Source: Octopus vulgaris (Eukaryota). From it: a stretch of DNA of 64,000 nt. Each line of letters starts with the position of its first letter. The stretch's first letter is position 1. Made by a program: the position numbers and the translations under genes. This document shows positions 1,339 to 59,834 of the stretch, piece after piece. The notes beneath the pieces are model-generated. The model searched no databases and was not told the origin of the DNA. It saw only the letters and a program-made list of their open reading frames with translations. Location: contig OX597832.1 of the NCBI GenBank assembly GCA_951406725.2, positions 66,092,001 through 66,156,000 on the forward strand. Direction: 5' to 3'.

Positions 1339-1425
<87 letters not shown>
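1339..1425. repeat. (ATT)n microsatellite, the 3' tail/target of the adjacent R4/Dong-like element
   Basis: Pure ATT run directly abutting the element's 3' UTR. Confidence 0.95.
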
Positions 1426-1426
<1 letters not shown>

Positions 1427-3212
1427 TATGTTTGACTTTTACTTTATATTTGTACAAGTTGGCTCCAAATCTCACCCAGAGACCTCAAGAGGCAACAGGT
1501 TGGAAGTTCGTATTGTTGTAATGCCTAGTGTGCCATATATTTGGTTTTCTATTTAGTGTTGTACTAGTGAATGCCTAAAAAAAAAACCAAAGTTATGTTT
1601 GTTTTAAAACTTGGGGTTACATAGAAAGTATTTTGCGTAGGATATAAGCAGTTCTCATGAGCACTATCTTTTGAATTTCTGCCATTTTGGGGTCTCCCGA
1701 TATCTGAGTTAGGTAGCGATCAGCCCCTTTTGCTATTATTCCCAGGGCACCTATGACAACAGGTATTGTTTTTGTCTTCAGGTTCCACATTTTGCTGATT
1801 TCTATTTCAAGATCTGTATATTTGCTCAGTTTTTGGTAGGTCTTGACAAATACGTGTATATCGATTGGGACAGTCATATCAATGAGGAGGCATGTTCTTT
1901 ATTTGAAGTCTTTCAATATGATGTCTGGCCTATTTGCATCTATCTTTCTGTCAGTTTGAATGGGGAAGTTCCAGAGGAGTGAAATGTGTTTATTTTAAAG
2001 CACTGGAGGTGGTTTGTGTTCCCACCAGTTTTTTCATGGGGCAAATCCAGGTTTTTGCAGATTACCCAGTGAATATATTCTGCAGCTCTATCATGCCTGT
2101 TGAGATACTCTGTAGGCGCTAGAAGACTGCACTTGGAGATAACATGATCAATGGTTTCATTTTGTTGTTGACATACACGACATGTTGGGTTACTACCGTT
2201 CTTTAATATGTTGGCCTGGTAGTTCCTTGTTGATAGGCATTGATCTTGAGCTGCTTTGATAAACCCTTCCCTTTCAGATTTTAAGCCAGAGGCCATTAGC
2301 CATTGATGGGTCAGGGCTTTGTCAACATCTGCATTATTCGCTCTCTTTGGGTATTTGCCATAGAGAGGTTTTTCTTACCATTTATCATTCAGAATATCTA
2401 AGGCAGCAGTTTTAGCACGGGTTTTCATGCGTTTAGATTTTTCTGTGCTTGTTTATTGTATGTCTAATACCGAAATGTGTTGTATTCGGAATTCACTTAG
2501 ATATTCCTTTGCCTGTTTTGTTACTGAGTATGATGCTTTCTTGTTTTCATGTTTTGAGACAAGTTTTAACATCCAGTCCTCAGAGATTTTCAGGTAGGTG
2601 TCTAGGCCAATTGTAGCAATCTTCATTGTTATTGCCAGTTGTAAAAGTCCACGATCTCCCTCTTTTCTTGGCAGTTAAATTCGTTCTATATCTACCTTAG
2701 AGTGGTGCATTCTATGCATTGTCAACAGTTTTCGTATTTTTCTGTCAAGATTAAATATTTCAGTAATTGACCAGTTAACGATATTGAAACTGTAAGTCAC
2801 GACTGGTATGGCTAAAGCATTGATCGCTTCGATCCTGTTTCTCGCATTCAGCGCTGTCTTGAGTATTGCTCTTACTCTGCGATAACATTCTCTCCGGATC
2901 CTTTCCTTCATCACTGAATGCTTTATTCCGTCCCCTTCAATTACCTCTAGGTACTTGTAGCTCTCCGCTGGGTCTAATTCTTTTATGACATTCTGCTGGT
3001 CAAGGTTAACGTTAGATGTTTCTGTCATTTTTCTTTTGAAAAATGTAGCTTTTGCACATTTATCGAGGCTAAATTGCGTTCTGATGTCATCGCTGAATAT
3101 TTAAACAATCGTTTGAGTTGATGGTCATTTTTGGCAAAGAGCTTTAAATCATCCACGTAAATGAGCTGATTTATATTTTTATCAAACATTTTATATCCGT
3201 ACTGCGTGATTC
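1426..3212 (-). mobile_element. 5'-truncated, frameshifted R4/Dong-like non-LTR retrotransposon (RT C-terminal half + CCHC + REL endonuclease), family 1
   Basis: GYKMFDKNINQLIYVDDLKLFAK (YVDD at 3148-3159). ORFs 2675-3028, 1940-2296 (CRVC..ETIDHVISKC zinc knuckle, RHD) and 1617-1877 (K..KY.DL..EI..MW, IPVVIGALG). ATT repeats on both sides. Confidence 0.92.
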
Positions 3213-18164: not shown

Positions 18165-18166
<2 letters not shown>

Positions 18167-19590
18167 GCTCTCTCGTCGTTCACAAAAAATTAGCGTTTGC
18201 AATACTTTTTTCGTTCGGCGTCAACAGCCCTTCCTATCTTGTTCTCCCTGTCCTGTCTTTTACTGTTATATATATATTTTTTTTACTGTTTATATATATA
18301 TATTTTTACTGTTTATATTTTTGTACTGTCGTTACTGTCTCGTTTTTTTACCATTTTTACCCCTCTGCGAAAAGATCTCAGAATTTTAATTGATTTGCTT
18401 TTCGCAGGAAGGAAAGTTTCTTGTCGAAGATACGTCTCGCTTTTATCCTTCGAAACGTAGAGTAGATGAAACTTTAGCGACTGAAGAAGGGGTTTTTTCG
18501 TTGTGTTAACTGTCCTGTACTCCATTTTTTGTTGTTTTAAAAAAAATGTCCTGTTCCTTTGGTTTGTGTCTATGTTTTCGTTTCTCTATGTGTTCGACGT
18601 CCCTTTGGTGTCCTGTACTCATATATGCGTGTATATGTACATGTAGAGGTAGGTACGTACATATATGTTTATATATATGCATATGTTTTATTTCTTTTAT
18701 TAATATATTATACGACTAAACGCACGCACCCTCTTAAGTAAGATTGTTCTGTATATCAAGTTCGCCTTGATATTAACTCTCACGTGCACTCTGCTCTTTC
18801 TTTCTTTCTTTCTATCCCATCCCCCCTTTTCGTCTTTTTCCCTCACTTAACTTGTCTCTTCCTCTCTCTCTCATTCTTCATTCTCTCTCTCCCCCTCACC
18901 CTTCTTCATGGTCTCCTCGCACCATTCCCTTTCTTCTCTCCCTTCCTCTTGCTCCTCCTCCCCCATTCCCGTCGTCCATCTGCGACGATACTTCCGCCGT
19001 AACTGCTAACGGTCTTTCTCGCCCGCCTTTTAAGGCTACTGGACGACTTTTCCTGCTCTCTCGTCGTTCACAAAAAATTAGCGTTTGCAATACTTTTTTC
19101 GTTCGGCGTCAACAGCCCTTCTTATCTTGTTCTCCCTGTCCTGTCTTTTACTGTTATATATATTTTTTTTTACTGTTTATATATATATTTTTTTACTGTT
19201 TATATTTTTGTACTGTCGTTACTGTCTCGTTTTTTTACCATTTTTTTACCATTTTTACCCCTCTGCGAAAAGATCTCAGAATTTTAATTGATTTGCTTTT
19301 CGCAGGAAGGAAAGTTTCTTGTCGAAGATACGTCTCGCTTTTATCCTTCGAAACGTAGAGTAGATGAAACCTTAGCGACTGAAGAAGGGGTTTTTTCGTT
19401 GTGTTAACTGTCCTGTACTCCATTTTTTGTTGTTTTAAAAAAAATGTCCTGTTCCTTTGGTTTGTGTCTATGTTTTCGTTTCTCTATGTGTTCGACGTCC
19501 CTTTGGTGTCCTGTACTCATATATGCGTGTATATGTACATGTAGCGGTAGGTACGTACATATATGTTTATATATATGCATATGTTTTATT

Positions 19591-19600
<10 letters not shown>
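18165..19600 (+). mobile_element. Non-coding partial tandem repeat (~890 bp unit, ~1.6 copies) with rearranged hammerhead motif: retrozyme-like family A
   Basis: 18165-18710 is repeated at 19053-19600. Flanked by (TA)n on both sides. No credible ORF. A dispersed third copy lies at 42497-42880. Confidence 0.85.
18359..18493 (+). ncRNA. Rearranged hammerhead-like motif, family A copy 1 (copies 2 and 3 at ~19257-19391 and ~42537-42668)
   Basis: GAAGGA (II) ... TACGT-C (18436)-TCGCT ... TCCTTC-GAA-ACGTA ... AGCGA-CTGAAGA (18481-18487). All three stems are perfectly complementary; GUC triplet. Confidence 0.75.
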
Positions 19601-19630
<30 letters not shown>

Positions 19631-20453
19631 GTATGTGTGCGTGTGTGTACACGCTTATAGAACTGCTTGTATATATAAATATCTTTGTATGTATGTATGT
19701 ACGTATCTAAATATCTATCTCCCTCTTTCTCTCCATTTCTCTTTCTCTGTATATATTGTGAGAGAGGGGTAACAAGAAATGTATGCATGTATATGTATGT
19801 GTGAGTGTGTGTGTGTGTGTGTGTGTTTCTATTTGTGCGTCAGTGTGTCTCTGTCTCTGTGTTTTTGCATTATATAATGAGAAATTTTTAATTAGCAATG
19901 TAGAAAGAAATCTCAGGTTTGTGAATAAGGGTTAATCTCCCGACCCGTACAGCTGCTTATTAATGATTGAAGCACGACTGAGACCCATAATGCACTATAC
20001 CCTCTGACTTTTCTCTTTCTAATATCAGTGGCTATATAAACTAATGCATCAATTCTTTTCTAAATATAGCTACAAGAATTTCTTGAAATATTTCTTTTAT
20101 GTCGTTTAAGAAACACTCATTTTTTGGTACATAATATGGTAGTGAGAATGAAACGTTTCGGGTCTTGCACAATCTTATAAACAACGTTTTGCATGTAATG
20201 AAATGAGAAAGCATGGTTCGTAGAACGATGGAATCATTGTCCGCATATTCGTTCTGTCTCCACCAACTGGTGAGTTGTGGAGTTATTTTGTCGAATTCCT
20301 TCACGTTTTCTACAGATACGATTGTCATTCGACTTGTAAGAAATGTATGCTCAAGCAATTAGGAAAATAGCAAACGCAGAATAATTTATGAGAATTATTT
20401 TCTTCCATAGAATATATTGGATATGTATGTATATGTATATGTATATGTATGTA

Positions 20454-20957
20454 TAGTTTTTCTAATGCTCGTTGCTTGGTTTTTCTTGGAGGGCTGGCCG
20501 TGATCTAGTAATCTCAAGATTAATCAGCCGAAATTACTACGATGATCCGGTTCTTGACTGAAGACTGAGGGTTTCGAATGTCCTGTCCGTGTTTATTGTG
20601 TCGTCTTCTAAGAGTTATACGTTCTTGTCCATGTTGTATTTTTCTACATACCTTAACATATATTCCAGGCGCCCCGTACCCCCCTTAACATTTATGTGAG
20701 CACATATTCTTAATAATTGGTACGACTCTCTGTTTGTCTCTCTCTCTCTCTCATTTTTACTTGATCTGTCCCCCTCTCTCTCTTTTCTCTCTACTCATCC
20801 TCTTTTTCTCTTCTCTTTCCTCTGATTCTTTGGTCTAGTCTTCCACTACCCTCCTATTTCTTTGTCTCGCTCTGCACTCACAGGTCATTCTTCGACACCC
20901 ATCCCTTCTCTCTGATTCCTTCTTTCTCTCTCTTCTCTCTCTTTGTTGCGTTTGTCC

Positions 20958-20991
<34 letters not shown>

Positions 20992-22367
20992 TTTGCTTCT
21001 CTTTCTTTTCTTTTCCCTCTTCTCTGTCACGTGACTGTTGGCCGAAATCTGCCTTTCAGTTCCTGACCCTCGTCTTGTTAACATCGCTGTTTTCGTCCGC
21101 CACTATAAAGGCTTTTTCCATTGCGCCAGAGAAAAAATTTGTTTGCTTGTTATCAGTCGTAAGACACTGTTGTTTTCACCGTTAATGCTTCTGTATTTCA
21201 TGTTTCTGTATTCCATTATTGTTTTTTTTTTTTTTTTTTTATATCTGTCCCTTTTGCTGTCCTGGTGTTCGTATGCATTCGATCCTTCTTCCAGGAAATC
21301 TACGCTTCCAGCTTAGTTTTTCTAATGCTCGTTGCTTGGTTTTTCTTGGAGGGCTGGCCGTGATCTAGTAATCTCAAGATTAATCAGCCGAAATTACTAC
21401 GATGATCCGGTTCTTGACTGAAGACTGAGGGTTTCGAATGTCCTGTCCGTGTTTATTGTGTCGTCTTCTAAGAGTTATACGTTCTTGTCCATGTTGTATT
21501 TTTCTACATACCTTAACATATATTCCAGGCGCCCCGTACCCCCCTTAACATTTATGTGAGCACATATTCTTAATAATTGGTACGACTCTCTGTTTGTCTC
21601 TCTCTCTCTCTCATTTTTACTTGATCTGTCCCCCTCTCTCTCTTTTCTCTCTACTCATCCTCTTTTTCTCTTCTCTTTCCTCTGATTCTTTGGTCTAGTC
21701 TTCCACTACCCTCCTATTTCTTTGTCTCGCTCTGCACTCACAGGTCATTCTTCGACACCCATCCCTTCTCTCTGATTCCTTCTTTCTCTCTCTTCTCTCT
21801 CTTTGTTGCGTTTGTCCCTCCTCTCTCTCTCTCTCTCTCTCTCTCTTCCTTTGCTTCTCTTTCTTTTCTTTTCCCTCTTCTCTGTCACGTGACTGTTGGC
21901 CGAAATCTGCCTTTCAGTTCCTGACCCTCGTCTTGTTAACATCGCTGTTTTCGTCCGCCACTATAAAGGCTTTTTCCATTGCGCCAGAGAAAAAATTTGT
22001 TTGCTTGTTATCAGTCGTAAGACACTGTTGTTTTCACCGTTAATGCTTCTGTATTTCATGTTTCTGTATTCCATTATTGTTTTTTTTTTTTTTTTATATC
22101 TGTCCCTTTTGCTGTCCTGGTGTTCGTATGCATTCGATCCTTCTTCCAGGAAATCTACGCTTCCAGCTTAGTTTTTCTAATGCTCGTTGCTTGGTTTTTC
22201 TTGGAGGGCTGGCCGTGATCTAGTAATCTCAAGATTAATCAGCCGAAATTACTACGATGATCCGGTTCTTGACTGAAGACTGAGGGTTTCGAATGTCCTG
22301 TCCGTGTTTATTGTGTCGTCTTCTAAGAGTTATACGTTCTTGTCCATGTTGTATTTTTCTACATACC

Positions 22368-22371
<4 letters not shown>
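20454..22371 (+). mobile_element. Non-coding tandem repeat (860/855 bp unit, ~2.2 copies) with rearranged hammerhead motif: retrozyme-like family B
   Basis: Units start at 20454, 21314 and 22169 and are near-identical apart from microsatellite/homopolymer lengths. Flanked by TA-type microsatellite. Confidence 0.9.
21276..21440 (+). ncRNA. Rearranged hammerhead-like motif, family B copy 2 (others with cleavage C at 20513 and 22228)
   Basis: GGCTG (II) ... TAGTAAT-C (21373)-TCAAGA ... CAGCC-GAA-ATTACTA ... TCTTGA-CTGAAGA (21418-21424); AUC triplet. Confidence 0.75.
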
Positions 22372-22405
<34 letters not shown>

Positions 22406-23719
22406 TATATTTATATGGATATACATATATATATATATACGTATGATGTATATATATATATATATATCTTGCACATGCCACTAGCAGTTGGCTGGGACTA
22501 CGCATACAGCCAACATACTCTTTTGCATATAAATTTTGCCATGAAGAAATATTAGTTTTGGCAAGGTAAGCCACGTTAAGCGGAAGACAGGTCGCTGTTC
22601 TTGAATAACAGATTGCTCCGTTTGTGCGAGTACGTGTGTGTGTGTGTGTGTGTATCAACCTATAATTACGTGTGTTTGTAAGTGTTTATGTGTACATAAG
22701 TCTGAACATGTATGTGTGAACATGTGTGCGTGTGCGTGTGTGTGTGTGCGTGTGTGTGTATACTTTTCATTCTGTTAAATGAGGGTTTCTGAGTCGGAAG
22801 AAAAGAAATTTGTGTGTGATGGTAAAATATGACTACACGTGTGTATCTAGATCGGTTGAACATTGGTAAATTTCCTTAATCCATGTAGAAACGATGTAGA
22901 AAGAAAGAATTATTCGTTCGTAAACATGGTTGTGCTGCACTTAGTGCTGTAGAATCAGAATGAAGTTATGGTATTTCAACTTCTTTTGGTGTAGATGAAG
23001 CTTGGTGTTCTGTGAATCAACAGTAATGATATACCTCTCGAAATAGCAGTCCATTAATCACTAATAAGAGTAATGCAATTAATCTCGCTGTCAAATAAAT
23101 TCGCGTGTCTGCGATCACGTCCTGATCAAACTGCACAATGTAGTTCCCATTTAAGTGTAAAGATTCTACAGGAAAATAATTTTAGATCACTTTGCATTCG
23201 TAATTCTATTAGAAAATCTGGGAAAATTAAACCTCTTCGATATGACGTCTGTGTTGATAGAGGTAGTTCTTTGGTGAGTAATATCATCCGTCTCTTTTAC
23301 TCACCAAAGGCTTAACAAATTCCTTCGGTTCCACATTTCAATGAATTTGAAATGATAGTGGAAAGAATAAAGCTGTGTGATATAAAAGACAGATGATTCA
23401 GTTTAGCCAAAGGAATTATATCCTGTATAATTCAGAAACAGAAACTCGTGATGCTAGATGCAACAGGAACACTAAGTGTGAAGCCTTATTGCTAGAGATT
23501 TTGTATTTTATGTTATAAATATGGATTGCACATAAGGATTCTCACTTCATGAATTCCTGACTAGATATCACAACCTCTAATGGCGCCACTTCATGAATAA
23601 ACTGATTGTGGTGGGCACCACTCATGTTGTGAGCAAATTTCCATCAAATACGGTTTCTTCATTTAAGAAGGCACATATATGACCACTCCAAATACGATGT
23701 AAATATTTTGTTTTAATAC

Positions 23720-30779: not shown

Positions 30780-30945
30780 AATGTTTCATCATTTTTTCCC
30801 TGTTATTCCTTTCTGACGAAGAGCGTAGGCTCGGAACGGAAAACTCTTTTCCAGTTTTCATTCCGAGAGATAAATTAATACTCCTGCCTGTTGTTCCCTC
30901 ACCTGTCTTCATCATTTCCTTTTCTCTAAACCTGAATTATATATA
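30780..30945 (+). mobile_element. PLE-type terminal remnant with mutated minimal hammerhead
   Basis: CTGACGA-A-GAGC-gtag-GCTC-GGAA (30813-30836), with GAAA mutated. A related copy at 58152-58186 reads GTTT-CTGAAGA..GAAACGTA-AAAC. Confidence 0.6.
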
Positions 30946-42496: not shown

Positions 42497-42880
42497 TTGT
42501 ACTGTCGTCACTGTCCTGTTTTTGTTACCATTTTTTACCCCTCTGCGAAAAGATCTCAGAATTTAATTGATTTGCTTTTCGCAGGAAGGAAATTTTCTTG
42601 TCGAAGATACGTCTCGCTTTTATCCTTCGAAACGTAGAGTAGATGAAACCATAGCGACTGAAGAAGGTTTTTTTTCTTTGTGTTAATCGTCCTGTTCTCT
42701 ATTTTTTGTTGTTTAATAAAATGTCCAGTTCCTTTGGTTTGTATTTATGTTTTCGTTTCTCATTGTGTTCGACGTCCTTTTGGTGTCCTGTACTCATATA
42801 TGCGTGTATATGTACATGTAGAGGTAGGTACGTACTTATATGTTTATATATATGCATATGTTTTATTTTATTTATTAATA
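42497..42880 (+). mobile_element. Dispersed, more diverged 5'-truncated copy of family A
   Basis: Aligns to 18320-18705. Ribozyme core and stems I-III are unchanged (cleavage C 42613, CTGAAGA 42658) while the flanks carry substitutions. Confidence 0.9.
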
Positions 42881-42997: not shown

Positions 42998-44813
42998 CAG
43001 AACAAGTAACAAGAATAGATTCGGTAATTTGGTACGATCGTTTCGTACTACATCATTTTATTAAATGTTGTAAGTATTACAACAGTTCTAAAATGCTAAG
43101 CACTCATCAGCCATTAATAGAGGTTTTCCATTAATACATAATTTTCATATCAAGTGATAACGTTATAGAGAAGGTAGATATATAGACAAAATGTGGATTT
43201 AAATGTTAAGGACATTCAAGATAGTGGACTTTATCAACTGACTGAATAATATTCAGTTGTTATGAACTGCTAGGAGGTTCTGAGAAGAATGGACAAATGA
43301 AAGGAGACAAGAAAGATTTTCTATTTATAGAAATAGGGGTGAAATAGATGTCAAAGTTCCATATAAAGAAATTTAGGTAGATAGAAAATGATTGTCACAT
43401 TACAATGCCAATTACTACTATTTGGTAAACAGATTTAGCATTAGGAAAACTAGGTTAATGTCAAATGGTTATAATGACACTCATAGACAATGTAGAGTTT
43501 TTTTTATAAAAATAATATAATAATAACATTATTAGTAGCTCATAGGTTCTGAGTACTTTGATACGTTGGATTAAAGGAGAAATTATAGATCTAAAAATTT
43601 ATTCAATTTAGAGAAAAGTCTATCACTTATTATGAGTAGGCACAATACTTATTAATTGGGGATAAAAGTCTTATTAATCAAGTGTATTATATTAGGGGTC
43701 AAAAATATATAATACGGAAAATGGAAGAGGAGAAATCAAAGAAGAAAGGTATTCGTAGGTTCAGTAGAACGTGATTTAATAATATGAAGAGAAGTAATTT
43801 AGAAGAGTAAATTATTCAGATTTCATAGATAGTGAGTTGTTATTAATGAATTAAAATATAGAATCAGTTGGAAATAATATTTACTACCCCCGGACGAAGG
43901 TTAATTAGTTAGGTAAAAATATCTTAGGTTAAATATATATTAAGAAATGGAAGCGAGATAATCAAGGTGAACCGAATAGTTTCCTTAGGGACATAGAATT
44001 TATGCTATTTAGTATTGGAGAATATTAAAAAAAAATTCTAAGTATGCAATGAAGTTTGTTAGCAATCTATGTATGTTCAATTAAAAACTAGTATGGTATC
44101 TTTGTTCTTATTTGGTTATAAAGAAATAAAATTTGAAATTTAGGAATATTCACGATATTATTATGTAAAATATTTAAACGTACGGGTTGTGCGATGTATG
44201 CAAGATAATCCTAGCTCCGAACAGTTATTTTACAGAATTGTATTACTCCGATATTTTAAAATTTCATATGTTTCCATAGAACAAAGTTGACAACCATCCC
44301 TACTATTTTTATAAGGCCGTGCTTTTTTTACTATATCCCATTTCAGGTTGAATTCTATATTACTCGTCTTTAGTTCTCAAATTTTACTAGACAATGTTGT
44401 GCAACCTGCTTTGTGTTTGAACCTAAAGGAGGAAAAATGATTGTTTAAACGTTATTTTTTAAATCTACCGAACAACCGAAATAAAGATAGTTGTTATTTG
44501 AAGTTATTATTGTACGTTTATAAATCACATTTTAGACCGAACAGCGGCCAGATACCGGACATTTCGATCTAATCCTACAATTACCACTGGGGGATAATTT
44601 CAAGTACTAGTATTATTTAAGGACAGTTCATTTTCATTTCTGTTATTTGAGTTGTTATTAGTATTAGTGTTATTTTCTCTAATAGTAGTTACATTGTTAT
44701 GCAAACTGGGGTTACTAGTTATTAATCCATCCTCATTATCATCACCTACTACACTTTTATCCATATTACCTATATTATTGATGTTGTTATTATCACTATT
44801 TCTATTAATGTTG

Positions 44814-44880
<67 letters not shown>

Positions 44881-44907
44881 CATCATCATTATTAATATTA
44901 TTATTAC

Positions 44908-44970
<63 letters not shown>

Positions 44971-47076
44971 CATTATAATTATTGCTATTTTTATTATTAT
45001 TATTATTATTATTGCTGTTGTTACTATTCATGCTATCGCTAGCTAACTTAATACCTTTACTATTAAGTCTAGCTATTATGGTAGCCATATTTGGGAGAGT
45101 AGAATATGATATTCTTACTGATTACTTAAAAATTATTTTATAATATTTATGGGAGGCTGGGAAGTTTTTTTTTCCAGTATAGACATAAATCTACTGTATA
45201 TATTCGTCGAGATTCGTTCATTTGAAGGGGATATTTAACCAAATGACATTTTTCCTTTATATTATTTGTTTGAGTAAGAGTGGGAAAGATTAGTGTTATC
45301 CATATTCTTACGAGATTCATTATACGTTATAGTCTTATTTTTATGTTTATTAGTTTTTTCTTTATGGGAGAAATTTTTGTATATATTTTATCTGGGTTTG
45401 CATTTTCATAGTTATTTATGATCTGTTTACTATTTCGATTCTTATTGTTGGGTTTATACACTAGGTTCTTTTCTTCTATAGATTTATGTTTATTTAGGGT
45501 ATGAGTTTCTATATTACTTGAGCCATTTACGTTCACTTCATCGTTTAGGAGATCTATGTTATCAAGATCTAGGAAGGTTATTTCCTGGTCGTATCCATCC
45601 TTGGATAATGCAATATTATAATGATTAGAGTGAGAGTCAAGGATTTCAATATTCGATGATAATTTTGAAATTCTCTATTGATTTAAGTGTATTCGGAGGG
45701 TGATTAGATGATTTATTTATGTATCTGGTAATTTCACCCTCCTTTCTAAATGGGTGATGTAACTTTGAATTTTCTAAGGTAACGTTTAGAAAATTCACTA
45801 TCTTGGTGTTAGTTTCATACGTAATGTCTAGGTTGAAATCTTTGAACATTTACTAATTTTCTTTCTTATCCTCTCAACTTTAGATTTATTGTTACTAGGT
45901 ACAATAAACAAAACATCATCTCAATATAAACAACCTTATAATTCCGGGATATCTCTATTTATGCATTTTAATAAATACGCTCCTACTAGATTAGTTATCT
46001 CCGCCGAATCACTTGAGCCCAGAAGCATATCAAAATTATTAGGGGTATCTGCCCTAGTCCATAATTTTCCTTCAAATTCGATGACAGTTTTCCTAGCTAA
46101 TAGGATGATGTCAATTTCTTCCCTAGATATGAGAGAGAGGTTCTTAGGAAAAATGAGTGATGTATTAAGTAGAATGTGGGAATCTTAATGATTCTTAAGA
46201 AAAATTTCTCCGAAAACCCTTCTGTAAGACTCATATGTCCAATTGGCTGACTTAGGAAATCTATTTTGGACAATATTCTACCCCATATAATTCCTAACCT
46301 CCCCTTGAGTCTATGGATTAATACAGACGAGGTAATAGATTGGTTTAAATCTCTAGATAATAATAATAGAATTTCTTTTATCCAATTTGACATTAACAAT
46401 TACTATTCCAGCATTATCCCCAGTTAATAAGTATTATGCGTACTCATAATAAGTGATAGACTTTTCTCTAAATTGAATAAATTTTTAGATCTGTAATTTC
46501 TCCTTTAATCCAACGTATCAAAGTACTCAGAACCTATGAGCTACTAATAATGTTATTATTATATTAGTTTATAAAAAAACTCTACATTGTCTATGAGTGT
46601 CATTATAACCATTTGACATTAACCTAGTTTTCCTAATGCTAAATCTGTTTACCAAATAGTAGTAATTGGCATTGTAATGTGACAATCCTTTTCTATCTAC
46701 CTAACTTTCTTTATATGGAACTTTGACATCTATTTCACCCCTATTTCTATAAATAGAAAATCTTTCTTGTTTCCTTTCATTTGTCCATTCTTCTCAGAAC
46801 CTCCTAGCAGTTCATAGCAACTGAATATTATTCAGTCAGTTGATAAAATCCACTATCTTCAATGTCCTTAAAATTTAAATCCACATTTTGTCTATATATC
46901 TACCTTCTCCATAATGTTATCACTTGATATGAAAATTATATATTAATGGAAAACCTCTATTGATGGCTGATGAGTGATCAGCATTTTAAAACTGTTGTAA
47001 TACTTGCATCATTTAATAAAATGATGTAGTGCGAAACGATCGTACCAAACTACCGAATTTATTCTTTTTCTTATTC

Positions 47077-48172: not shown

Positions 48173-48217
48173 TGGAAAACTTCATTGTTAAATCCAGTTG
48201 TATTATTATTATTATTA

Positions 48218-48650
48218 TTTTTTTTTCTTCTTTCAAATTTGCTTCCATTTCTTGCCGAGTGTCTTCCCGACTCCTAGGGCAAAGAAACTCATAGTATACA
48301 TTGGTAGGCCATTAAACCAAACTCAATAGTTCGTTCATTTAAAAAAATTTTTTTAAAGTTAAATTAAAATACATGAGCAGCAACAGTTCTCACATCGACA
48401 ATGCTCTTCTCAATACGTGTGATGTACCAGTTAAGACAATCTTTTGCACTTCTTGCAGGGATGGTAAACCAGGGATCATTCTCATATAATTTTTGGCTCC
48501 CTTCTTGATCATTCCTAGTGCTCCTACGATCACTGGTATTGTAACCGCCTTGAGATGCCACATTTTCTCAATTTCAATGAGTAGGTCTTTATATTTTCTG
48601 AGCTTCTCAAACTCTTTCGCTGAGATATTATGATCACAGAGGATGCTCAA
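48218..48650 (-). mobile_element. Severely 5'-truncated copy (3' ~430 bp) of R4/Dong-like family 2
   Basis: ORF 48390-48650 plus 3' UTR is nearly, but not exactly, identical to 48680-49110. ATT repeats on both sides. Confidence 0.92.
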
Positions 48651-48677
48651 GACATTACATTATTATTATTATTATTA

Positions 48678-51487
48678 CTTTTTTTTTTTCTTCTTTCAAA
48701 TTTTCTTCCATTTCTTGCCGAGTGTCTTCCCGACTCCTAGGGCAAAGAAACTCATAGTGTATATTGGTAGGCCATTAAACCAAACTCAGTAGTTCGTTCA
48801 TTTTTTTTTTTTTTTTTTAAAGTTAAATTAAAATACATGAGCAGCAACAGTTCTCACATCGACAATGCTCTTCTCAATACGTGTGATGTACCAGTTAAGA
48901 CAATCTTTTGCACTTCTTGCAGGGATGGTAAGCCAGGGATCATTCTCATATAATTTTCGGTTCCCTTCTTGATCATTCCTAGTGCTCCTACGATCACTGG
49001 TATTGTAACCGCCTTGAGATGCCACATTTTCTCAATTTCAATGAGTAGGTCTTTATATTTTCTGAGCTTGTCAAACTCTTTCGCTGAGATATTATGATCA
49101 CAGGGGATGCTCATGTCGATCAATAAGCAAACTTTATTGTTTTGGTCTTTCACAACAATATCTGGTTTATTGGCCTTGATGGTTCGGTATGTATGTACTG
49201 GAAAGTCCCACAGAATGGTTACATTTTCTCCTTCAGTTACAGCCTCAGGGTGTTGATTATACCACTTGTCGGCAGTTTTGATATTGTAATGCCGACTTAT
49301 TAGCCAGTGTAGATATTGGCCAACTCTGTCATGTCTTAATTTATACTCCACTGGTGCTAAGACTTTACATCCAGAGATTAGATGGTCCACTGTTTCAATC
49401 ATGTCGTTGCAGAATCGGCATTTTGGGTCTGCTCCATTTTTCATCACATTGGCCTGGTAGTTCCGGGTTAATAGGCTTTGATCTTGAGCAGCCAGGATGA
49501 AACTTTCGCTCTCTGCTTTTAGCCCTCAGCTCCGCAGCCACTGATGGGTTTGCTTCTGGTCAACATCAGCTTGTTTGCTGCGGGTCACATATTTGCCGTG
49601 CAGAGGTTTCTCCTCCCACCTATCAGCCAATTGCTCGTGCGCTTTTTTCATTGCCATCAATTTCACCTTCTTTGCAACAATAGTTGCCGTACTTCCCTCG
49701 GGTTGTTCAGTTTGGGTATCCTGCACGAGATCAATAGCAAATTTTTTGCTTTCCTTGATGATAGAATGAAGCTTCTTTCGTCTCTCGTGATTTTCCACGA
49801 GCTTTAGCATCCAGTCATTCGATATTTCGAGATATTTGGCCAGTCCAATTGTGGTTGTTTTGTAAGCTAGTTCAAATTGGATCAGGCCTCGAGCTCCTTG
49901 GGCTCTGGGAAGGTAAAGGCGATCTACGTCTGCCTTTGGGTGGTGCATCCTATTACAACTCAGCAGCTTGCGTATTTTTCTATCTATATTCTTTATTTCA
50001 CTCATATTCCAGTTCAACACATTGTAGCTATAAGTAACAACTGGAACTGCTAAGGAATTTATAGCTAATACCTTGTTACGTGCATTTAGTTCAGATTTCA
50101 GGACTGCACGAACTCTCCTATAACATTCCTTCCTGATTTTCTCTTTCATGCTTGCATGCTGAATACCAGAGCCTTCATTTATCCCTAAATATTTGTATGT
50201 CTGTTCTTGCTCAAGCTCTCTTATGACTGTGTCAACATCTAACACGACTGAATTTGTGGTCTTCACTTTCCCTTTCTGGAAAGTGGCCTTGGCACACTTC
50301 TCAAGTCCAAACTCCATCCCGATGTCATCGCTGAATGCTTTCACTGTGCGCAATAGGCCTTCAAGTTCATTATTGTCTTTACCATAAAGTTTTAAGTCAT
50401 CCATATAAAATAGATGGCTTATTTTTTTATTGGCAATTTTATACCCATACCCTGTTCTGTTTAATTCACTTGTAAGGGGTATTAGGGCTATGCAGAATAT
50501 TAAAGGTGAAGGTGAGTCACCTTGAAAAATTCCACAGTTGATGTTTATATTTTCTGAGGCAAGTACTCCATTAGAGTGGTATAATTGGAGATTCGTATTC
50601 CACAACGACATATTGTGCTTCAGGAAGTTTGAAATCACAGGGGAAATTTTAAAGATGTCCAGCGATCTCAAGATCCATGGATGCGGTATACTGTCGAAGG
50701 CCTTTTTATAGTCAATCCATGCGGTGCTGAGATTTCTGCGCTTGTTGTGACAGTTCTCAAGGATCATACGATTGATTAGCAGTTGATCTTTGCATCCGTA
50801 AGACCTCGGCGGCACCCTTTTTGTTCAATGGGGAAAATATCGTTCTTCTCCATGAATGCATATGTTTTCTCCGCCAGGATAGATGTTAGGATTTTATACG
50901 TGGTGGATAGACAGGTTATAGGCCGATAGTTTTTTGGAAGGTTGGTTTCGTTATTCTTTGGGAGTAGGTAAGTAATGCCACTTGCTAACCATTCAGGTGT
51001 TTTCTTTGGGTCTCTCAAAATCCCATTAAGCAGCTGAACTAGCTTACCGTGTGCGCACGGGAGCGATGCGAGCCAGAAATTCGGCACCCTATCTTTACCG
51101 GGGGATTTCCAATTATGGGCCTTCGTGAGTGCCTTTCTTAGGTCTGCTATTGTGATGTCTTCCCATGCTTGTTGTTGTAAATTTTGGTAGGATCCTTCAG
51201 TTTGTATAATCCAGTCTGCATTTATGTTGTACGTCTTCTTGTCACTCCAAATCCTTTCCCAAAAGTTTTGAACTTCTTCCATGGGAGGAGGGTCTTTAAC
51301 GGTTACTTTCTCCTTCCCTATTTCTCTGTAGAATTTTTTGCCATTGGATGTGAACAGCTTATTTTGCTTGTAAAACTTGTTTCTCTTCTCAAATCTTCGT
51401 ATTCTTTGGGCTTTTGCTTGGACTTTTTGTTTCAGCGTTTCTTTTATTGATATCAGTTCTTCTCTTGGTGAGGATCCAAATTTTCTC

Positions 51488-51490
<3 letters not shown>
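48678..51490 (-). mobile_element. Young 5'-truncated R4/Dong-like non-LTR retrotransposon (RT + CCHC + REL endonuclease), family 2, two frameshifts
   Basis: ORFs 50776-51490 (NWKSPGKD, NYRPITCL), 49526-50815 (WIDYKKAFDS, GIFQGD, YMDD) and 48854-49447 (CRFC..HLISGC, RHD, KPDIVV..LID, K..KY). Both ends are embedded in (TAA)n. Confidence 0.95.
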
Positions 51491-51570
<80 letters not shown>

Positions 51571-51676
51571 CATCATTATTGAGTGAGAGAGCAGTTCATG
51601 CCATCAAAGTGACACTGGGGTAAAATATACGTAGCCCAATATACCCATCATGACTACCCGTCTGATAAGGGTTATA

Positions 51677-57468: not shown

Positions 57469-58438
57469 CAGAGGGATAGATAGAGTGATAGAAGTTTCAG
57501 TAACTATGTCGAGGTGAATGTAGGAATGTACCGTTCAAATATTTTCTCTCCAGCAATGTCGCTTCTGGTTTGGTTGAACTTCTCTTCACAATATATTCCA
57601 ACATTGTTCCAGACTGACTAATGCCTTTAAGCTGAATTTGGTGAGCGGGAATTCGTTGGAAATCTGACGAATATAGAAATACGTAGGTTTGTGTGTCTAT
57701 GTTTACTCACACGTACATGTGCATGCGCCTTTGCTTGTGTGTTAGTTGTTCCAACGCGTTGACAATCGCTGGTGTTACGAGCGTATTTCGGCAAACACAA
57801 TCCTATTAAATATCAGCCTCGAATGTCAGCAGGGTAAGATCCTGAATGTCACTGAAAGAAATTATAAAAAAACGAACAAAAGACAAATATATTTTTCTCT
57901 TCTCATCTCACAATTCTGTAGAGGAATGCAGGTGCATCTCAAGACTTCTACCATTTTTTTGATTGAACCTCCATCTAATAGAACCTATTTGATGTTCGTG
58001 TAAGTGATTTCTTCTTAATTTTATAGTACACAAAAACAGACAGACACATACACACGCATACATACATACACACACGCTCGGTCATTTCAAAATGTAACTA
58101 CACGTGGATTGTTGGCGATTTTTCCTACGTCTTCTTTTTCCTCTGTCTCCTGTTTCTGAAGAAGAGTTTTAATCGAAACGTAAAACTAACTTGCATTCCT
58201 TCCCTGAGCATCTGTTAATAGTTTGCATGTACCACGTCCTCGCGTTCTCGCTTTTTCCTTGTTGCATTTTCATTGTTTTTTGGTGGGGGGATTATATATA
58301 CATATACAGATAGAAATATAACGTGATGTAATAGGGATTTGGAATACGGGCAGGTACCTCTTTAGCGCTCTGGTATAATCCAGTCAAGGCTAACTACATC
58401 GATGTTCAAACCTTTACCGATCCTTGTGAGCTCCACCC

Positions 58439-59834
58439 AGCGCATAGGTAAGACCTTGAACAAACCTGCATAGGAATATCTACCCCTGATGAATATGCAC
58501 TGTAACTAAACTGGTTAAATGGACACAAATGCTACATCAAAAGTCATTAGGATACTTATGCAACCGAAACACGTGTCGGATTGGAATTTAATGTGAATTT
58601 AATGAGATGAATACTGTAATGAATTTTGTATAATTGTATAATTGTATAATTCTCTACTCTTCCTTAAGATTCTTGCATACACACATGCAGACACACACAT
58701 ACACACACATGTATGTAGTATCAGATGATAACCAGATGGAGCCAAATCAGGATAGTAGGGACGGTGATCCATCAGTTTATGGCCAGAGTCATGCACAGTA
58801 GGCATTAAATGCAAGGGTTTGTGTGCGGGGGCATTGTGCAGGGGAAGCAAAACCCCATTCGTCAATGTTCCTGTGCGTTTGGTCTTCATAGCCTTTCGTA
58901 ATTGCCTTAGAAATTTGGCATAGTACTCTCCATTGATGTTGCGGGCCTTTTGAAGATAGTCGATAAACACGATGGTTTTTGCATCCCCAAGACTGAGCAG
59001 CCCTGCAGATGAAACTACCTTGGTCTTTGGAACAGGTGCGGAAGAGTGTTTCTACTGAATAGAATACGTCATTTTCTCTGGTTCAAGCTGGTGAAGCCAA
59101 CACTTATCCTGATGTAAGGAAACATTGAAGGAAACCAGCTGGATGTGCCTCAAACAATATCAGATTTTCCCGGATTGTGGTAAGCGCATAGGTAAGACCT
59201 TGAACAAACCTGCATAGGAATATCTACCCCTGATGAATATGCACTGTAACTAAACTGGTTAAATGGACACAAATGCTACATCAAAAGTCATTAGGATACT
59301 TATGCAACCGAAACACGTGCCGGATTGGAATTTAATGTGAATTTAATGAGATGAATACTGTAATGAATTTTGTATAATTGTATAATTGTATAATTCTCTA
59401 CTCTTCCTTAAGATTCTTGCATACACACATGCAGACACACACATACACACACATGTATGTAGTATCAGATGATAACCAGATGGAGCCAAATCAGGATAGT
59501 AGGGACGGTGATCCATCAGTTTATGGCCAGAGTCATGCACAGTAGGCATTAAATGCAAGGGTTTGTGTGCGGGGGCATTGTGCAGGGGAAGCAAAACCCC
59601 ATTCGTCAATGTTCCTGTGCGTTTGGTCTTCATAGCCTTTCGTAATTGCCTTAGAAATTTGGCATAGTACTCTCCATTGATGTTGCGGGCCTTTTGAAGA
59701 TAGTCGATAAACACGATGGTTTTTGCATCCCCAAGACTGAGCAGCCCTGCAGATGAAACTACCTTGGTCTTTGGAACAGGTGCGGAAGAGTGTTTCTACT
59801 GAATAGAATACGTCATTTTCTCTGGTTCAAGCTG
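58439..59834 (-). repeat. 744-bp period tandem duplication containing a mariner transposase fragment
   Basis: 58439-59090 is repeated at 59183-59834. Identical ORFs FIDYLQKARNINGEYYAKFLRQLRKA..HNAPAH..HRPYYPDLAPSGYHL. Confidence 0.93.

Follow-up and report, generated by a model that had tools for sequence, protein, structure and literature searches.

The window, by which we mean the whole 64,000-nucleotide stretch of Octopus vulgaris DNA that was analysed (C19:66,092,001-66,156,000 of a 2.8-Gb, 227-contig assembly), carries on its + strand an insertion of 2.23 head-to-tail units at 20454..22371, here called family B. The units repeat with periods of 860 and 855 nt, and the two full units are identical save for two microsatellite indels, of 2 and 3 nt; exact unit identity reaches 59 nt leftward to 20454 and 144 nt rightward to 22371. 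Three identical sets of hammerhead core words start at 20504, 21364, and 22219, and the longest ATG-initiated frame in the repeat (six frames) is 68 aa. The insertion is bordered by a (TATG/TA)n tract on the left (20412..20453, the tract being seen to 20455) and by the (TA)n target tract on the right (22372..22467, seen from 22371), and because TA-type tracts lie on both sides, no target site duplication is readable. A preliminary description of this DNA, which had reported about 2.2 near-identical, non-coding head-to-tail units with three ribozyme cores inserted in a TA-type microsatellite, was accurate in these respects.

The ribozyme copies occupy 20492..20564, 21352..21424, and 22207..22279 (all +), with predicted cuts 3' of 20513, 21373, and 22228, respectively. 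These cleavage positions, already proposed in the preliminary description, are the C of UC, and the TCAAGA 5' ends and monomer sizes predicted with them hold. The predicted monomers span 20514..21373 (860 nt, pyrimidine-rich, without an ORF) and 21374..22228 (855 nt), both on the + strand, and are followed by a 143-nt 3' arm (22229..22371, +) that terminates at the fixed 3' end of the family, CCTTAA; at its 5' side the insertion is truncated 60 nt before the first predicted cut. Within the unit, CATATAT directly follows the fixed-end point CCTTAA and is likely a priming match to the nicked (TA)n target. A TATA-like box at 21104..21109 (+; second copy at 21962-21967), preceded by an E-box-like word, may be an internal promoter.

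Family B is a young, abundant, high-copy, non-coding retroelement with hundreds of insertions in the genome. Its 106-nt core has 1,122 candidates, all 40 scored ones being 100% identical, and the 21-mer at its 3' end has 1,234 exact matches as compared to 0 for the reversed control. The first 100 of these 1,234 matches make up 70 loci, which would give ∼850 insertions if the ratio holds, and all 70 were used for a census of ends. Every one shares a single 3' end, 143 nt past the predicted cut and running into (TA)n, while the 5' ends vary; more than one end motif is present in 19 of the 70, and the longest array has six cores. A fixed 3' end with variable 5' ends is the pattern that target-primed reverse transcription from a fixed priming point would leave. 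The earlier proposal that the element is recently mobilised and non-autonomous is supported, and the genome-wide copy number rules out single-locus occurrence and an assembly artefact (40 of 40 identical; 1,234 matches vs 0). The endpoints are not freely permuted: all copies stop at one 3' position, and variation is confined to their 5' ends. Related families are B' (∼745-nt unit, 2,406 genome candidates) and A (898-nt unit, at least 1,671 candidate cores). Family A, found in the window at 18166-19595 (+) and 42506-42880 (+), ends in (TA)n; its sequence is unrelated to that of family B, yet it has the same core-opened S-G-C ribozyme.

Strand order and fold of the ribozyme

Each family B unit has one hammerhead core, whose blocks run in the order cleavage site, GAAA, CUGAnGA (S-G-C), with the core words UH, GAAA, and CUGAnGA all intact. 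A permuted-hammerhead descriptor matched the window six times (three in family B, three in family A) as compared to 0.03 times per shuffled window (30 shuffles). Rfam at gathering thresholds gave no match in the window because the strand order is non-canonical. Across forty evenly spaced 10-kb samples of the genome, the descriptor matched twice in 400 kb against a null of 0-1; of these two matches, one is real and the other probably due to chance. Matches were also seen at three loci (L018, L056, and L076) outside the three lineages treated below; that at L018:401-494 (+) is an S-G-C core like a cnidarian Naiad core, without a clear upstream stem II strand.

The elements of family B copy 1 (all +) follow one another as II5'-T-S-G-T'-I3'-CUGAAGA, and copies 2 and 3 are the same. 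The upstream stem II 5' strand (20492..20497, GGCTG plus a G.U) is predicted to pair with 20524-20529, flush to GAAA and with a G10.1-C11.1 pair. The 5' strand of a further helix, which we call T (20497..20505), is predicted to pair with 20544-20551 and to be separated from stem III by a variant K-turn-like internal loop. Block S (20506..20519) holds the stem III 5' strand, UC with the predicted cut 3' of 20513, and the stem I 5' strand TCAAGA, and block G (20524..20539) holds the stem II 3' strand, GAAA (20530-20533), and the stem III 3' strand. The stem I 3' strand TCTTGA and the CUGAAGA core lie at 20552..20564, and the CTGA that follows could form only a weak, out-of-register stem II with a 2-nt insertion. 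Because the stem II 5' strand lies upstream of the cleavage block, the SGC ring is predicted to be opened within its core, between A9 and G10.1, and in a circular monomer the remaining RNA would be one large insertion between these two nucleotides.

An upstream strand of at least five pairs flush to GAAA (G10.1-C11.1) is present in 22 of 29 distinct cores, and 26 of the 29 have no pair in a flush downstream stem II. Compensatory changes in stems I, III, and T affect 12 of 23 pairs in the A lineage (9 sequences) and 6 of 24 in the B lineage (6 sequences); these sets are small and related, and although they exceed shuffles, the excess is no probability. Stem II is invariant within lineages and wholly different between the three compared in this genome (B, A, and Octopus-type Naiad), with GGCTG/CAGCC, GAAGG/CCTTC, and GACACC/GGTGTC, and in Naiad consensi, as read by eye, it also changes completely between ctenophore, cnidarian, and ostracod elements. 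No stem II covariation was found inside the A or the B lineage. When the upstream strand was compared with shuffles, p ranged from 0.03 to 0.26 per core (22 cores with at least five pairs) and was 0.26 for family B.

Helix T pairs the nucleotides after the upstream strand with those before the stem I 3' strand and would correspond to the stem I-II interaction helix of Eckert et al. shifted to the 5' side. From the strand order and pairing that the sequences display, we infer the three-dimensional fold of the ring. In the kink-turn consensus, two stems flank a 3-nt bulge and then a G.A and an A.G pair in tandem. Of 11 cores tested, four (B', B216, and two Naiad copies) show the canonical pattern between the upstream linker and the III-T linker. 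The family B site is a variant, with G.A followed by A.U instead of A.G at the second pair, and in that orientation a K-turn is absent from all six A-lineage cores among the 11. With a K-turn-like bend, T would come within reach of the distal ends of stems I and II. Nested minimum-energy folds predicted with RNAfold, for the core as for the circular monomer, contain no hammerhead, an uninformative outcome because RNAfold cannot model pseudoknots.

Our first reading was a plain type SGC hammerhead with a 2-nt bulge, which was demoted when the upstream strand proved more general. It is unlikely, though still a rival, that an ordinary type SGC is the active form, its stem II supplied by the nucleotides that follow CUGAAGA, with a 2-nt bulge preceding GAAA, and with the upstream strand acting as an inhibitor or switch that delays cleavage; it stays a rival because the stem II p-values are modest and the downstream alternative in family A is equally stable (duplex energies of −12.3 kcal/mol downstream and −11.7 kcal/mol upstream). 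The downstream 4-bp helix pairs in 87.5% of cells in the B lineage, but without compensatory change, and it is broken in B216. Two A-lineage variants form a flush downstream stem II (5 and 7 pairs), and pairing of the family B tail with the linker is possible too (−7.5 kcal/mol), yet the downstream helix is missing from Octopus-type Naiad cores and, by eye, from the coral, Clytia-order, and ostracod consensi. Moreover, G10.1-C11.1, described as a conserved pair in the accessible part of PMC4209133, forms solely with the upstream strand.

Naiads and the source of the enzyme

According to the available text of Craig et al. 2021 (PMC8557442), Naiads lack canonical hammerheads, yet some are flagged as HHR_core or HHR_half_core, including two cephalopod families; Naiad_Ovul and Naiad_Esco are both flagged HHR_half_core. 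The same text gives (TA)n as the insertion preference of Naiads and holds the cephalopod Naiads to be long inactivated. Among their 54 published consensi, as available to us, the ring described above can be seen in 17, of which 11 are core-opened and 6 are type CSG; these are readings by eye without a null, and the text search overlooks motifs split by line ends. The core-opened Naiads are one ctenophore and one Clytia family (by file order), three from Acropora, two from Morbakka (by order), one from Darwinula, and Obim, Ovul, and Esco (stem II decayed). The six CSG-type Naiads, CSG being another opening of the same ring, all lie in the nematode part of the consensus file; nematode Naiad 3' ends in parts 13-16 of the accessible supplement read as type CSG with long interaction helices. 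The Omin, Adux, and Skow-1 Naiad ends and several arthropod places (supplement parts 16-19, as available) gave no fit or none resolvable by eye.

In the octopus genome, a 20-mer taken from the Ovul core finds 212 exact matches, and the core lies 3' of a decayed Naiad reverse transcriptase (RT) in L200/L203 and L206. BLAST of the family B unit against the fetched 3' ends of Naiads, Neptune-type elements, and Penelope-like elements (PLEs) of the clade to which the decayed PLE in the window belongs found no similarity, so descent of family B from Naiads is argued from the fold and not from sequence. On this structural evidence, the ribozyme design appears to derive from Naiad 3' UTRs.

The design and the present enzyme may have different origins. 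In a search with a Naiad RT fragment (150 of 3,100 candidates scored), the close matches were all decayed, with a longest open frame of 292 aa among those resembling Naiads, and the ranking extended down to Neptune-type matches at 33-35% identity. Of the GIY-YIG loci fetched (30 of 148 matches), 29 were Neptune-type, a label that we presume from the CxxxxCxxC motif and the C-terminal GIY-YIG layout, and one resembled a host nuclease. Two Neptune-type families have intact ORFs (781 and 753 aa), as does the clade of the window's decayed PLE (∼980-1,090 aa). Because the Naiads here are decayed, the present helper is more likely an intact PLE with a C-terminal endonuclease, either Neptune-type or of the window clade. 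The Neptune-type families likewise end in (TA)n, and the 3' termini of intact PLE families are all U-rich, a likeness too weak to assign a partner. The permuted descriptor found no S-G-C core in the fetched 3' regions of intact Neptune-type and window-clade PLEs; their 3' cores readable by eye are of canonical order, and none resembles the family B unit. Young intact PLE families at L133-L143, L233-L245, and L309-L316 have 3' cores (by eye) with a TTGAnAA variant, in which U3-A8 replaces C3-G8, and in the 781-aa family an upstream ORF overlaps the RT frame.

The decayed PLE in the window (43008-47069) has inverted arms; at ∼46963-47050 it carries a type I hammerhead of canonical order whose stem III is palindromic. 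A Penelope-type enzyme such as those of the decayed elements in the window had been named as the probable mobiliser of family B, but neither this PLE nor its intact relatives have any sequence in common with family B; its clade is one candidate helper among several. A still-active Naiad, missed in the assembly or in our search, would unite ribozyme design and enzyme in one clade, and Naiads do favour (TA)n and carry the same ribozyme fold; we nevertheless regard such a helper as improbable, since the close RT matches are all decayed and Craig et al., in the text available, hold cephalopod Naiads to be long inactive.

A probable cleavage footprint and proposed copying from circles

The 5' ends of family B copies change in frequency abruptly at the predicted cut. 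They fall at +1..+20 past it in 22 of the 70 loci and at −20..−1 in 1 (one-sided binomial 2.9e-6, or 5.5e-6 with one segmental duplicate dropped; the 70 include two pairs of segmental duplicates, of which one pair falls in the peak). The end is exactly at +1 in 4 of the 70, most near-cut ends sitting 2-19 nt past the cut. The simplest reading of the pile-up is that the RT ran off at a 5' end made by the ribozyme, with slight trimming afterwards. Had the RT stalled at structure, ends should gather along the 3' edge of the fold, at +25 to +55, but just 4 are found there. The family B hammerhead thus likely self-cleaves in cells, at the site that the structure predicts. At L126:1501 and L126:2103, two Naiad-type core copies start exactly at their predicted cut, after a TA tract.

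The same loci divide almost evenly between those that read through at least one cut site (34 of 70) and those of at most 143 nt (36 of 70). Unit pairs inside arrays differ by 0-1 substitutions (19 pairs), whereas those drawn from different arrays (509, of which 28 at zero) have a median of 10. Array L184 (G000:C1:108237500-108244000, − strand), a family B array of six cores, has the same A>G set in all six, with 8 changes in five cores and 7 plus a deletion in one; the many non-A>G differences in the mutation tally stem from alignments that ran into the flanks of shortened copies and were left out. These changes are confined to the 56 nt after the cut, where they include GAAA>GAGG, with none elsewhere in the unit (chance of such clustering, 3e-8), and the pattern occurs six times in the genome, every time inside L184. 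Because they are all on the ribozyme strand, they would fit A-to-I editing of the + strand RNA. ADAR is abundant in cephalopods. Unit lengths in L184 alternate 843/844. Units 3 and 5 have one C>T in common, so two units may stem from later DNA duplication; even so, at least two identical edited cores are needed at insertion. An in-phase pattern of dead cores is the trace expected of one edited circle copied several times, which is likely what L184 records. Together with the census of 5' ends, it lends weight to the earlier idea that the tandems arise via a circular template.

In four sequencing runs presumed to be RNA, the family B unit is covered in 24-27 of 30 bins (control stretch 4-7 of 30), and one of them has it whole in an 856-nt contig. 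Three of the four contain a junction that leads back by 860. Contigs of a high-copy tandem would look alike for a circle, a genomic tandem, and read-through, so this coverage is given no weight here.

It is quite unlikely that there is no circle at all, with tandems coming from uncleaved linear multimers and unequal crossing-over and the ribozyme merely trimming 5' ends. The 36 loci of at most 143 nt need no circle, parent arrays are homogeneous anyway, and the mutation common to alternate units of L184 would fit such exchange. However, the seed for a unit-length duplication must already contain two cores; identical core-destroying A>G sets, private to L184, are hard to obtain via independent editing of a linear multimer; and copying of linear RNA can just shorten arrays, yet six cores were reached. 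That family B is a satellite-like repeat or an assembly artefact with a chance resemblance to a hammerhead is extremely improbable, for although Rfam gave no match and the nested minimum-energy fold contains no hammerhead, Rfam models and RNAfold cannot represent a multiply pseudoknotted order, and the dispersed copies with a single fixed end, the covariation, the near-zero null rate, and the step in 5' ends at the cut all stand against it.

We therefore consider it probable that family B is a high-copy retroelement, young and non-coding, with its 3' end fixed in (TA)n, bearing an S-G-C hammerhead that likely takes its stem II 5' strand from upstream and likely cleaves itself in cells. A borrowed Penelope-like enzyme likely copies the element into DNA, using linear as well as circular RNA as template. 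In the mechanism that we propose, a tandem copy would be transcribed on the + strand, as is suggested by the A-to-G marks falling on that strand. The SGC ring, opened between A9 and G10.1, would then form stems I, II, and III, with helix T tying the outer ends of I and II and a K-turn-like bend joining T and III. Cleavage 3' of UC, to which the 5'-end pile-up points, would free ∼860-nt monomers. The 3' end of each monomer (II5'-T-III5'-UC) would be clamped to its 5' part by three helices, an arrangement that would favour ligation into a circle. A PLE RT/GIY-YIG enzyme would nick (TA)n and prime 143 nt past the cut. On cleaved linear RNA, run-off at the cut would give copies of at most 143 nt, and on a circle, repeated rounds would give partial tandems like that at 20454-22371.

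Relation to known ribozymes and retrozymes

Metazoan non-LTR retrozymes have type I hammerheads and circRNAs of ∼170-400 nt (Cervera and de la Pena 2020, PMC7229834, from the portion of the text available); the words octopus and cephalopod are absent from the main text of that paper. In the accessible part of a later survey, retrozyme consensi measure 51-972 bp and no mollusc was sampled (Li, Clavereau and Pollet 2026, 10.64898/2026.07.22.740005). That retrozymes are PLE parasites is already published, always with type I hammerheads, found with type I descriptors, in what is available of these two sources. Family B resembles them in its tandem non-coding units with one hammerhead each, and a circular stage and use of a PLE enzyme are proposed for both; unlike them, it has a unit of ∼850 nt and a non-circularly permuted hammerhead. 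Of the preliminary description as a retrozyme, the non-coding, retrozyme-like PLE parasite stands, but the hammerhead is S-G-C with an upstream stem II strand and not type I. Family B would work like a retrozyme and is filed as a variant.

In the accessible text of Eckert et al. 2023 (PMC10085705), type SGC is a non-circular permutation, validated in vitro and reported from metatranscriptomes only; our search of the literature for type SGC hammerheads returned that paper only. In the same text, CUGAnGA and the adjacent stem II strand are assumed to be inseparable, six orders are distinguished, and two CSG sequences are described. Family B shares with the types SGC and CSG described there the S-G-C order, all core nucleotides, a short stem I-II linker, and an extra helix that bridges the outer ends of these two stems, but differs from all six orders in that CUGAnGA and the stem II strand appear to be separated. 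A literature search, thin on subscription papers, found no publication describing this core-opened form.

Family B resembles Naiads in targeting (TA)n, in combining a fixed 3' end with 5' truncation, in forming partial tandems, and in the ribozyme ring, which Naiads carry in their 3' UTR; the (TA)n, 3'-end, and tandem traits are not Naiad-specific. It differs from them in having no N-terminal GIY-YIG/CxC/RT ORF and no detectable sequence similarity, and the fold is not given by Craig et al. in the available part of PMC8557442. With elements that carry canonical-order hammerheads, family B shares a ribozyme near the 3' end and a circular template proposed for reverse transcription of more than one unit; those hammerheads have a tiny palindromic stem III and act as dimers, whereas that of family B is predicted to have a full stem III of 5-7 bp and to be monomeric and multiply pseudoknotted.

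A broader reading, to which we give somewhat better than even credence, is that the reverse-order ring opened between A9 and G10.1 is an active seventh hammerhead wiring and the hidden ribozyme of Naiads from ctenophores to cephalopods; that it clamps cleaved ends into circles; that it escaped into non-coding parasites, which outlive Naiads by switching helpers; and that these parasites left DNA fossils of in vivo cleavage and of ADAR-edited circles. If true, this would place non-circularly permuted hammerheads, reported from environmental RNA, on animal chromosomes as well, and the premise that CUGAnGA and stem II have to be contiguous would fall. It would also explain why Naiads have been scored as hammerhead-free and would reopen the inference that hammerheads are dispensable for PLE spread. 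A circular template behind PLE and retrozyme tandems has long been proposed with little direct genomic evidence so far, and the step in 5' ends and the in-phase edited array are two cheap readouts usable on any assembly. A 75-nt construct suffices for a direct test of the fold.

Several other repeats lie in the window. Canonical-order hammerhead-like core words occur in old repeats at 30800-30870, 57640-57700, and 58120-58185 (all +). Remnants of non-LTR retrotransposon RTs with (ATT)n tails are found at 1339-3100 (−) and 48201-51600 (−), the latter with a 464-nt duplicated 3' end. A mariner-like transposase fragment at 58439-59834 forms a 744-nt tandem duplication, and the CTGATGA within it looks incidental.
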